From NCBI GenBank assembly GCA_049599895.1, contig JBMYPC010000111.1, positions 1 through 10,188 of the forward strand: 10,188 bases of DNA, read 5' to 3'. This stretch comes from Bacteriovoracaceae bacterium. Lineage in GTDB: Bacteria; Bdellovibrionota; Bacteriovoracia; Bacteriovoracales; Bacteriovoracaceae. The notes under the pieces are model-generated. The model worked only from the letters and a program-made list of their open reading frames with translations. It made no database searches and had not been told where the DNA came from. Positions 8,177-10,188 of the stretch are shown here, piece after piece. The translations under genes and the position numbers were made by a program. Positions within the stretch are counted from its first letter, which is position 1. Each line of letters opens with the position of its first letter.

Positions 8177-8844
8177 ATAATAGAAAAATAATAATTTTCC
8201 CTTTGCTCGCCTTTGCTTTTCTAACTTTAAGAAATGATCAAAAGAAGCAAGCACCTAAAGTAAATGAGAGCATTGAGAAGATCAAAGTTAAAGAAAGGAC
8301 AAAAACGAAGACTTCTGCTGTTGAAATTAAAGAAATGGTGAAAGTCGAAAAAGAGCAGATTTTGGAGAAACAAATTGAAGCTCTTTTTCCAAAGCTTGAA
8401 CGCCTAAAATTCAAAGTCCTCAAGACAGAGCAGGAAAAAGAGTTTCTTGCCAATAGTTATAAGTCCGAAGCAAACATTCAGAAGGCTTATCGAGTTTTAA
8501 AAAGATATGACTTTAGTGATGAGGTCCTTGAAGAGCAAAGACGAGTTGAAGCCGTAAACTTTCTTGCAACGGCCTTAAAGCAAAAGAATAACCACAACAG
8601 AGAACTCATCTTATCAAACATCAAATACTTTCTTTTGGATAATCGTTTTCAAAGTCTTGATAACGACATTCAAAAGAAAAGTGTGATCGGCGACAAAATC
8701 GATCTTCTCATTGTCTCATTCGAATACGCTCCTGAGTTGATTGAAGAAATCGAAGCTCATTATGCCACAGAGAGAATGAAGAAATTATTGAAATACGCAA
8801 AAAACAGATACGAATACGACAGGAGTCAAAATGAAACTATTTAA
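8167..8844 (+). CDS. Hypothetical protein with an N-terminal membrane anchor or signal, a Lys/Glu-rich linker and an alpha-helical domain
   Basis: 225 aa. RBS AGGAG at 8153-57. RK followed by hydrophobic IIIFPLLAFAFLTL. No Cys. Overlaps both neighbours (10 nt and 14 nt). Confidence 0.8.
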   Translation: MVLNNRKIIIFPLLAFAFLTLRNDQKKQAPKVNESIEKIKVKERTKTKTSAVEIKEMVKVEKEQILEKQIEALFPKLERLKFKVLKTEQEKEFLANSYKSEANIQKAYRVLKRYDFSDEVLEEQRRVEAVNFLATALKQKNNHNRELILSNIKYFLLDNRFQSLDNDIQKKSVIGDKIDLLIVSFEYAPELIEEIEAHYATERMKKLLKYAKNRYEYDRSQNETI

Positions 8845-10188
8845 ATTCACTTTATTACTACTACCTTTTAGCAGCATTCAAGCCGCTCAACATGAAATAC
8901 CAACAACTGAAAAAACCGTGGCACTTCTCGGAACAGGTTATAACTCTGAAAAAGAAGAGTTCTTAGGGCCTTGTATCGAAGGAACAATTATTCACGAAGG
9001 AAAACCTCAAGCCTCCATTGATCTTACCTCTTCAATATCCGAAAGAGAGCTATCAAAAGAACTTGGTTTTTCCATGAACACAAAATTTCGCTATGGAGCT
9101 GTTACTGCATCAGCTTCGGCAAAGTATCTAAAGAATACTAAAACCAACTCTCTTTCAATCTCGACTAACTATGTCTCAAAATACACTTTTGAGAATCGCC
9201 TTTTTGATACTGATGCCAAGCTCACTTCGGTAGGGCAATCAGTGCAAAACCACGACACGAGATGGAAAAAAACCTGTGGTGATCACTATGCAGCTCAACA
9301 AGTCGTTGGGGCAAAGCTCTTTTTTAGTATCCGCCTCGACTTTAAATCAGAACTCGCGAAAAGAAGTTTTCAGGCCAACTTCAATGTCTCTGGCCCAGCT
9401 TTTGATGTGGGTGGAAAGATTAAGAATGCCAAGAATCAATTCTCTAAGGAGACTAAAGTCACAGTTCAAGCTCTTCAAATCGGTGGAAAAGTCGATAAAA
9501 TTTCACAAATTTTCTATGGTGGAACAACAGGTGGCAACGATGCACCTTTTCAGTTTGTTCAATGCTCATTAGGAGACCTTCAAAAATGTGAAAAAGTCCT
9601 CGCCAATATGATTCAATATGCAACAGATATTGAAAATGGATTTCCTAGTCAAATTGATCCTGATGTCAAAGTTGGTGAGAATGGAGGCCCGGCTCTTTTA
9701 AAGATTCTCGCAAGACCCTATAGTGATCTTGGAATTTACTCACCCTTCTCTCCTGAAATGACCATGCAAATTAAGGTTGCAAGAAGAAAGACTTCAGATC
9801 TATTTGAAAAAGTCTTAGGCCAATTCGCAACAGCTGAAAGCTTAAACAAAAGAAGTATTGTCCGCCTTAACATCAAACAAAAAGAAAGAATCGTCAAAGC
9901 AGAAACCACTCTTTGGGATTCAATGCAAATGGTAGTGGATGCAGCTCAAATTTGTTATACGAATCCAGGGGAATGTCCCTCGGCTTACCAATCCATTGAC
10001 ATCGGAAACCCTGACTCTCCAGTAACACTTTTTGATGATGAATATTTTAGAATTCTCCCTGAAACTTTCTCACAATACTGTGACCTTGCTCTTTCCCCCT
10101 TTGGGAAAAAATCTTTACGTGAATCAATCCTAGGAATGATTGAAGGGGCGAAAGGAATTGACGAGGAGAAATTTAATCCTTCATTTCC
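8831..10188 (+). CDS. Secreted MACPF/CDC-superfamily-like (putative pore-forming) protein, 3'-truncated at 452 aa; absent from the ORF track
   Basis: RBS AGGAG at 8821-25 and ATG 8831. My translation is open to the window end: MKLFKFTLLLLPFSSIQA|AQHE...LLGTGYNSEKEEFLGPC...ELSKELGFSMNTKFRYGAVTASASAKY...WKKTCGDHYAAQQVVGAKLFFSIRLDF...FQANFNVSGPAFDVGGKI...VTVQALQIGG...RPYSDL...ETFSQYC. The CDS is near certain; the MACPF-like call is motif-based. Confidence 0.75.
   Translation, partial: MKLFKFTLLLLPFSSIQAAQHEIPTTEKTVALLGTGYNSEKEEFLGPCIEGTIIHEGKPQASIDLTSSISERELSKELGFSMNTKFRYGAVTASASAKYLKNTKTNSLSISTNYVSKYTFENRLFDTDAKLTSVGQSVQNHDTRWKKTCGDHYAAQQVVGAKLFFSIRLDFKSELAKRSFQANFNVSGPAFDVGGKIKNAKNQFSKETKVTVQALQIGGKVDKISQIFYGGTTGGNDAPFQFVQCSLGDLQKCEKVLANMIQYATDIENGFPSQIDPDVKVGENGGPALLKILARPYSDLGIYSPFSPEMTMQIKVARRKTSDLFEKVLGQFATAESLNKRSIVRLNIKQKERIVKAETTLWDSMQMVVDAAQICYTNPGECPSAYQSIDIGNPDSPVTLFDDEYFRILPETFSQYCDLALSPFGKKSLRESILGMIEGAKGIDEEKFNPSF

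Follow-up and report, generated by a model that had tools for sequence, protein, structure and literature searches.

A candidate pore-forming protein of predicted MACPF/CDC fold with a leucine-rich-repeat and Kelch tail in a Bacteriovoracaceae genome

The stretch of DNA analysed here (10,188 nucleotides, hereafter the window) is the entire contig C111 of a 3.27-Mb genome assembled in 266 contigs, and it ends within a gene that starts at position 8831. This gene encodes a protein of about 950 residues whose front domain, judging from its predicted structure, almost certainly has the MACPF/CDC fold, and whose tail consists of leucine-rich repeats (LRR) and a Kelch propeller. Our favoured reading, to which we give a probability of roughly 0.5, is that the protein is exported and forms ring-shaped beta-barrel pores in the membranes of other microbes, with bacterial prey or competitors as the most likely targets. 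The protein and its relatives form a genuine branch of the MACPF/CDC superfamily that resembles stonustoxin and Aeg-L and is left unannotated in databases; being a large family that is invisible to Pfam, they widen this superfamily and include, in bacteria, an architecture related to that of stonustoxin and Aeg-L. Knowledge of the ways in which Bdellovibrio-like predators breach or drain membranes is still patchy, and the family is likely an overlooked candidate means of piercing other cells in predatory bacteria. Full-text searches, with subscription journals, supplements and AlphaFold DB outside their scope, returned no paper tying MACPF proteins to Bdellovibrio-like bacteria or to Hint cassettes, and the excerpts of PMC5941755 and PMC7778945 hold nothing on the window family.

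A gene cut by the contig end

The frame opens with an ATG at 8831 and is still open at the window end after 452 codons, as the initial annotation had described, with AGGAG lying 5 nt before the ATG; that annotation is to be corrected in that this real frame is only half of a gene of about 950 residues cut by the contig end. An open frame without a stop at a contig end would easily be dropped by annotation. The features of the gene in the window are the following:

8821-8825, + strand: ribosome-binding site AGGAG, 5 nt upstream of the ATG (sequence)
8831-10188, + strand: 5' half of the MACPF/CDC-fold gene, 452 codons (signal, MACPF/CDC-fold domain, helical domain, LRR cap), with the rest (LRR and Kelch) on contig C245
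8831-8884, + strand: predicted Sec signal peptide, residues 1-18 (by eye, with a crude hydrophobicity check in relatives)
8888-9718, + strand: predicted MACPF/CDC-fold domain, residues ~20-296 (model, fold searches, ESM Atlas, profile match to Aeg-L)
8927-8944, + strand: LGTGYN motif, with G34 kept in 139/148 relatives
9038-9154, + strand: predicted first transmembrane hairpin region (TMH1), residues 70-108, modelled as helices, with alternation at 78-89 and 91-99; 39 residues long in 142/142 relatives with both anchors
9275-9313, + strand: variant signature C-G-D-H-Y-x6-G-A, residues 149-161 (sequence and family alignment)
9341-9454, + strand: predicted second hairpin region (TMH2), residues 171-208, modelled as helices, with alternation at 180-187 and 191-198; 38 residues long in 141/148
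9476-9487, + strand: Q-x-G-G behind strand 4, residues 216-219, with Q, G and G each in 147/148
9752-9997, + strand: predicted helical domain, residues 308-389, containing the Cys375/Cys382 pair (model; aligns with the region behind the stonustoxin MACPF domain)
10058-10188, + strand: first part of the LRR cap, residues 410-452, truncated at the contig end (alignment with LRR-bearing relatives)

The closest relatives of the window protein have 933-960 residues, with LRRs and a Kelch propeller behind the common front part. A search of the same genome with the tail of one relative led to contig C245, which starts with a 5'-open frame of 493 codons encoding LRR and Kelch; C111 covers residues 17-446/452 of the relatives and C245 residues 473/475-944/947. 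The downstream sequence that the initial annotation had proposed to retrieve was thereby obtained, and the further domain that it had placed from ETFSQYC (10061-10081) onwards turned out to be an LRR cap, followed by the Kelch propeller on C245. Further, in the seawater run X1, window positions 8244-10188 match positions 2258-4202 of a record of 4202 nt and depth 8.7, and positions 34-2245 of C245 match positions 1-2212 of a record of the same length and depth. Given their equal length, depth and strand and their complementary positions, both matches correspond to one contig with 45 bases in between; this gap keeps the frame, which results in a gene of 950 codons, and the 30 of its 45 letters that were inspected by eye hold no in-frame stop. 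Run X1 is possibly the source of the window DNA, so that the bridging contig is not independent evidence. Bases 1-33 of C245 (L017) differ from the bridging contig and probably represent a faulty contig tip.

A relaxed MACPF signature was found in a single one of the 2182 long frames of this genome, namely the 8831 frame, and the genome holds no second copy of the front domain. A hydrophobic 9-mer lies within the first 45 residues in 107 of 138 full-length relatives. The promoter and terminator scan of the window gave results no better than those of shuffled sequences, and a look-up of RNA data listed no set that contains the gene.

Fold and conserved features of the front domain

An AlphaFold2 model of residues 19-452, obtained with 108 sequences, had a predicted local distance difference test (pLDDT) value of 88.9 and a predicted template modelling (pTM) score of 0.84. 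Its strands comprise residues 60-69, 109-119, 152-170, 209-217 and 288-296, its helix clusters residues 71-103 and 174-203, and its helical domain residues 308-389. The initial annotation had tied its assignment to a bent sheet flanked by two helical clusters; the predicted model displays this core layout of the superfamily, with long strands enclosing two helix clusters, one between strands 1 and 2 and the other between strands 3 and 4. MACPF/CDC proteins rank first in the fold searches, the check that had been suggested with that annotation. Foldseek returned 12 matches at E<=0.001, of which the 11 listed are chains of stonustoxin (the best match, E 2.6e-5), Aeg-L, MPEG-1, C8 and TgPLP1, and all 44 rows listed correspond to MACPF/CDC proteins, judged by title or identity. 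In a VIA search against 48,161 chains, only four reached Z>=8, all from the MACPF/CDC superfamily: stonustoxin B (Z 10.2, root-mean-square deviation 3.9, 282 aligned residues, model 1-403 on chain 4-377), the Aeg-L pore (Z 9.4, root-mean-square deviation 8.7, 245 aligned), MPEG-1 (Z 8.9) and 6nal (Z 8.6), with the same order in a second VIA listing. As VIA values of Z 7-8 are common by chance, the score alone is modest and the weight rests on the agreement among matches. The alignment with stonustoxin also bears out the helical region that had been noted behind the MACPF domain, which superimposes on the helical part of that toxin.

Evidence obtained by other means points in the same direction. 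ESM Atlas features, which do not depend on the model, gave values of 0.94-0.95 to clusters of MACPF, CDC and SNTX type, and the Atlas matches carry PF24674. A full-length family profile searched against the PDB was swamped by LRR proteins; rerun with 53 members without LRR tails, the profile reached one PDB sequence at E<0.001, which was Aeg-L (E 8.4e-4, across the signature), and it did not reach stonustoxin (4wvm). Searched with the window protein as a single sequence, Pfam, NCBIfam and the PDB gave no usable match. Neither PF01823 nor PF24674 was found in the window protein (E<=1), in 9 relatives (0.1), in 40 relatives (1e-5) or in 14 divergent members (0.01), in agreement with the suggestion of the initial annotation that the degenerate signature may evade standard MACPF profiles. 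By its predicted fold, the protein is a member of the MACPF/CDC superfamily, but it is not a CDC or CDCL and fails the narrow MACPF profile.

All eight motifs that had been named in the initial annotation were found where it placed them. Conservation was counted in up to 148 aligned relatives, excluding the window protein. The signature-like CGDHYAAQQVVGAKL lies at 9275-9319, and the variant signature CG[DHNE]x[YF]x6G[AG] is present in 125/148 relatives, with C149 in 147/148, G150 in 148/148, G160 in 144/148, and position 161 being Ala in 134/148 and Gly in 13/148. The exact MACPF signature Y/W-G-T/S-H-F/Y-x6-GG is absent from the window protein and from all 148 relatives; Bth-MACPF also deviates from the consensus (PMC2954219). 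VTVQALQIGG lies at 9458-9487, and its Q-x-G-G end may be placed like the glycine pair of CDCs. The glycines associated with the sheet bend in the superfamily (PMC2954219) are kept (G160, G218 and G219), with Ala predominating at 161. Nearly invariant in the family are G150, G160, Q216, G218, G219 and six Cys, the Cys of the window protein being residues 48, 149, 245, 253, 375, 382 and 417. As for the traits of CDCs and CDCLs as defined in PMC7527733, the YGR of the motif F/Y-F/Y-Xn-YGR is absent from the window protein and occurs in 2/148 relatives, and in place of a CDC domain 4 with undecapeptide, the window part has no WEWW and the remainder of the gene encodes LRR and Kelch.

The two segments of alternating hydrophobic and polar residues (9062-9127 and 9368-9421) hold their alternation across the family. 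Family-mean hydropathy alternation amounted to 3.97 at residues 78-89, 3.74 at 91-99, 4.77 at 180-187 and 4.32 at 191-198, exceeding all 55-79 same-length windows in other helices, for segments taken from the initial annotation with ends refined after viewing the family profile. The phase is common to 141/142, 141/143, 148/148 and 147/148 relatives in the same order, and flips at each turn, as expected of a hairpin; shuffling gave p values of 0.002, 0.008, 0.03 and 0.03, the last being about the floor for 8 residues. Both hairpin regions are almost devoid of insertions and deletions, with a near-fixed length in at least 141/148 relatives. Hairpin regions are of about 30 residues in CDCs and 48-60 in classical MACPFs (PMC2954219), and those of the window family (39 and 38) lie between these lengths.

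The family, its tails and the Hint-Hel(-S8) cassette

The family search yielded 947 representatives (50% clustering) at E<=0.001, 440 at 1e-10 and 128 at 1e-30, of which the best 150 were examined. In a rough motif sort of 138 relatives of at least 500 residues, tails were LRR in 56, LRR plus Kelch in 25, unnamed in 21, other in 30 and of small classes in 6, and Pfam added LGFP and Ig-like forms; database labels describe these tails ('internalin', 'kelch', 'LRR') or read 'hypothetical'. In a tree of 46 front domains, which omits L050, L056, L074, L079 and L080 as duplicates or fragments, the window protein groups with four LRR+Kelch proteins (support 99/96), and tail types are clustered, yet switch several times. 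The family profile, which remote members can escape, matched 38 of 300 genomes drawn from the same phylum and 10 of 67 from the same family, most of them near-complete, and 3 of 400 in a control phylum (that of G314). Named loci are mostly from Bdellovibrionota and the closest named relatives are Halobacteriovorax proteins, from which we infer that the organism is likely a marine predator of this phylum.

Several further arrangements were observed within the family. The same domain lies at the C-terminal end of two large Ig-like repeat proteins (P0133, 1989 aa; P0154, 1097 aa). A clade with MACPF and LRR only (L010 3479-6951, L054 8914-12289, L008, L011, L075) is followed by another downstream gene set, one gene of which resembles a papain-type protease by eye and has no Pfam match at 0.01. 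Three tandem, strongly diverged paralogues of long and short form, which bring to mind complement or CDCL pairs, are found in L050 (8233-12932), L051 (6996-11695) and L087 (6482-11275); those of L050 and L051 stand behind copies of a four-Cys domain, and records of B. bacteriovorus contain identical proteins, labelled 'internalin', 'LRR' or 'hypothetical'. The gene order in G435 is Hint, MACPF, four-Cys plus GEVED, MACPF, MACPF. A single record, P0175, has two paralogues end to end and may be a read-through error.

Upstream of the MACPF gene, the window encodes the following:

8167-8844, + strand: 'Hel', an N-terminal hydrophobic anchor and an ARM/HEAT-like helical domain, overlapping the start of the MACPF gene by 14 nt
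6329-8176, + strand: S8 (subtilase-like) protease with lipoprotein-type signal (Pfam Peptidase_S8 above cut-off)
5401-6282, + strand: signal, small four-Cys domain, Hint domain (G|C start, T-x-x-H, no terminal His-Asn) and short C-terminal tail
4919-5257, + strand: separate copy of the four-Cys domain, 31% identical to that of the Hint protein over 91 residues (E 2e-10)
4473-4865, upstream of the S8-encoding cassette: lipoprotein-type protein with two Kazal protease-inhibitor domains (Pfam)

The order is thus Kazal lipoprotein, four-Cys, Hint, S8, Hel and MACPF gene, with gaps of 53, 143, 46, -10 and -14 nt. Using partner profiles built from LRR+Kelch loci (the window's own proteins recover most of those loci), Hel was found directly upstream of the MACPF gene in all 18 distinct LRR+Kelch loci, and, where the flank sufficed, the Hint gene was present in 15/16 and S8 in 15/17. 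In 13 aligned S8 proteins, Cys18 (lipoprotein-type), His405, Asn479 and Ser535 are invariant, and the acid position is Asp in 5 and Glu in 8. The Hint protein profile matches the bacterial intein-like domain 2lwy (E 3e-8), and the first Cys and T-x-x-H are present; as the terminal His-Asn is missing, splicing is unlikely and N-terminal cleavage would take place instead. The Kazal lipoprotein could be an inhibitor of the S8 protease; none of the loci checked with its sequence had it next to the cassette.

Hel was detected in 33/301 genomes. From 24 Hel sites away from LRR+Kelch genes, 14 were fetched, and in 13 of these Hel adjoins Hint, directly or across S8. Other clades of the MACPF family lack Hint, Hel, S8 or four-Cys partners. 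Hint-Hel(-S8) is thus a self-standing cassette, and the MACPF gene is a frequent, optional cargo. Stand-alone cassettes occur across the phylum (L092-L105, e.g., L096 6709-10159, L097 3685-7159 and L101 6470-8101) and include proteins of ~910-940 residues ending in a four-Cys domain and Hint; L104 has a weak family-profile match on the opposite strand. The cassette may represent a self-processing surface-attachment system. In L092 (63-1208) and L101 (4064-5398), Hel-Hint pairs lie between integrase-like genes, recognised by eye, suggesting carriage on mobile elements, and in L090 (6084-8154) the S8 gene is split over two frames.

Two partner roles were considered for the neighbours. The idea that Hel serves the MACPF protein specifically, as its chaperone or immunity protein, was rejected as default, since Hel tracks the Hint gene and not the MACPF gene; its fold is a generic helical solenoid without clear match. 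The four-Cys domain as an aegerolysin-like binding subunit was unsupported, as no known fold was found for it and it occurs in 45/301 genomes, often within other proteins; when the MACPF part was modelled together with the four-Cys domain from the Hint protein, the complex scored 0.00, which counts neither way. On C245, directly after the MACPF gene, L017 (G000:C245) 1503-2135 encodes a 210-residue protein with a hydrophobic glycine-rich hairpin; its weak relatives flank the cassette in L007, L057, L059 and L060, and it has no Pfam match. At the other end of the window, positions 3-4440 hold histidine utilisation genes in a row, including an amidohydrolase by Pfam; the first two we take to be ammonia-lyase-like and urocanate hydratase-like.

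Proposed function and comparison with known systems

In the proposed mechanism, the protein would be exported to the periplasm by Sec and acquire disulfides there within three conserved Cys pairs, as the signal peptide and the Cys positions suggest, and would then probably exit via type II secretion (GspD scores above cut-off in the same genome). Binding to a surface receptor would fall to the LRR and Kelch tail, a role suggested by the way tails are exchanged among family members. The S8 lipoprotein protease encoded next to it might then cut and activate the protein, by analogy with CDCL and BSAP-1, although we consider such activation somewhat doubtful. Monomers would join edge to edge via the core sheet, and in each subunit the two helix clusters would rearrange into a pair of beta-hairpins that enter the membrane, in keeping with the predicted fold and the sequence pattern, ring assembly and insertion being taken from analogy with the superfamily (PMC11952106). 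Antibacterial, protease-activated MACPF/CDCL toxins exist (PMC11952106; 10.64898/2026.08.05.742979). We regard lytic pore formation as quite probable. The patchy spread suggests an accessory weapon and not core predation machinery, which tempers the claim.

Several observations weigh against this reading. The structural match, with a Z of about 10, is of modest strength, and the solved members share 8-16% identity with the window protein. No evident removable pro-segment follows the signal peptide, S8 is lacking at 2/17 LRR+Kelch loci, and only 2 of the 14 further Hel loci have a family member on the same strand within 4.5 kb; the protease therefore need not act on the MACPF protein. The profile was seeded in the same phylum and kin genomes are not independent, so that the counts describe an enrichment within the genomes searched and not a test, and the family also occurs outside predators (Paraburkholderia; G435 of the control phylum). 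Stonustoxin is listed as pore-forming and haemolytic (PMC6410017), and Aeg-L perforates airway epithelium together with Aeg-S (PMC13341504); as both act on animal cells and the nearest ESM Atlas clusters are mostly fungal, with some animal, the target could be eukaryotic. Furthermore, MACPF folds can have non-lytic roles (PMC2954219).

One objection is that the MACPF likeness arose by chance or reflects another pore fold, such as that of gasdermins. The blank Pfam, NCBIfam and single-sequence PDB searches and the lack of the canonical signature speak in its favour; ESM Atlas, structure searches and family profile all point to MACPF/CDC instead, and the glycine pair after strand 4 is kept, a pair that gasdermins lack according to PMC11952106, which makes this objection extremely unlikely. 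No gasdermin appears among the listed rows of the fold searches, a listing from which unlisted families may be missing. A pore of the same kind aimed at eukaryotic membranes, either as a defence against grazing protists or for the lysis of algae or fungi, would agree with the nearest solved structures and Atlas clusters, with the internalin-like LRRs of the tail and with the presence of the family in non-predatory lineages. Yet likeness of the pore domain does not fix the target, the tails are unrelated to that of stonustoxin, the family is enriched in a phylum of bacterial predators, and the top matches include MPEG-1, a group with antibacterial members. CDCLs, likewise among the top matches, include antibacterial proteins (PMC11952106), and we regard a eukaryotic target as unlikely, though worth keeping in mind.

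Lysis itself may be questioned: the protein could be a non-lytic, surface-displayed adhesion scaffold or a self-made channel, carried as variable cargo of a Hint-Hel-S8 display cassette. The 13/14 further loci pairing Hel with Hint, mostly without a same-strand family neighbour, would fit, as would the nature of LRR and Kelch as binding modules and the non-lytic MACPF roles discussed in PMC2954219. However, the strict hairpin length, the alternation and both glycine motifs are what membrane insertion requires, and many members stand without Hint, Hel or S8 beside them, so this alternative appears distinctly improbable. A part in the core machinery for prey entry, feeding or exit finds some backing in the presence of the family in Halobacteriovorax and in the three tandem paralogues of Bdellovibrio bacteriovorus records; the profile, even if it can miss remote members, matched so few near-complete genomes of the family and phylum that we consider this role very unlikely. 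Lytic pores directed at other microbes remain our preferred reading. A bolder extension of it, which we hold to be rather improbable, is a complement-like arsenal of predatory Bdellovibrionota, in which a stonustoxin-like MACPF family, unseen by Pfam and with targeting tails that can be swapped, would be armed by its own cassette (lipoprotein subtilase and self-cleaving Hint protein), the three tandem paralogues of B. bacteriovorus and of a gammaproteobacterial-type genome would build one mixed pore in prey membranes, and the bacterial root of the stonustoxin/Aeg-L branch would be represented. Candidates in culturable strains are available: Halobacteriovorax has single genes, and records of B. 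bacteriovorus show a cluster of three (WP_041577848.1, WP_041577847.1, WP_041577846.1).

Regarding known systems, the closest named relative is CBW26568.1 of Halobacteriovorax marinus (947 aa, 49% identity over the front domain, same domain order), whose labels, 'putative internalin A-like exported protein' and 'kelch repeat-containing protein', describe the tail only and leave the front 400 residues unannotated. Among solved structures, stonustoxin (PDB 4wvm; MACPF_SNTX PF24674 and Stonustoxin_helical PF21109) is the best match and the likeness comprises both the MACPF and the helical domain, the structural alignment spanning the two, so that the SNTX-like trait of a helical domain directly behind the MACPF domain is present. 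In contrast to stonustoxin, with which it shares 11-13% identity, the window protein is bacterial, has a signal peptide, lacks PF24674 as do its relatives, and bears an LRR+Kelch tail, the tail of stonustoxin being made of thioredoxin and PRYSPRY domains. Aeg-L of Alternaria alternata (PDB 9uj0, 36 chains) is the second structural match, the sole PDB sequence reached by the family profile and a demonstrated pore former (PMC13341504); unlike the window protein, it is fungal, works with Aeg-S and has GG where the window family mostly has GA, and no aegerolysin-type partner was seen beside the window MACPF gene.

The bacterial MACPF toxins BSAP-1, Plu-MACPF (2qp2), Bth-MACPF (3kk7), GNIP1Aa (6fbm) and Mpf2Ba1 (8b6v) resemble the window protein in being secreted MACPF proteins with a C-terminal binding domain, BSAP-1 being receptor-targeted and protease-activated (10.64898/2026.08.05.742979); they differ in their weaker structural match (Z 5.8-7.3), in hairpin regions of 48-60 residues (PMC2954219) versus 38-39, and in tails and neighbours. 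Finally, CDCs and CDCLs (PFO, pneumolysin, 6nal; EaCDCL 8g33, 9ccq) share the core fold (Z up to 8.7), short hairpins and a glycine pair behind strand 4, whereas the window protein has no YGR, no undecapeptide in the window part and an LRR+Kelch tail instead of domain 4. CDCLs come as long and short pairs that act after proteolysis (PMC11952106), and these pairs recall the tandem long and short paralogues of the window family.

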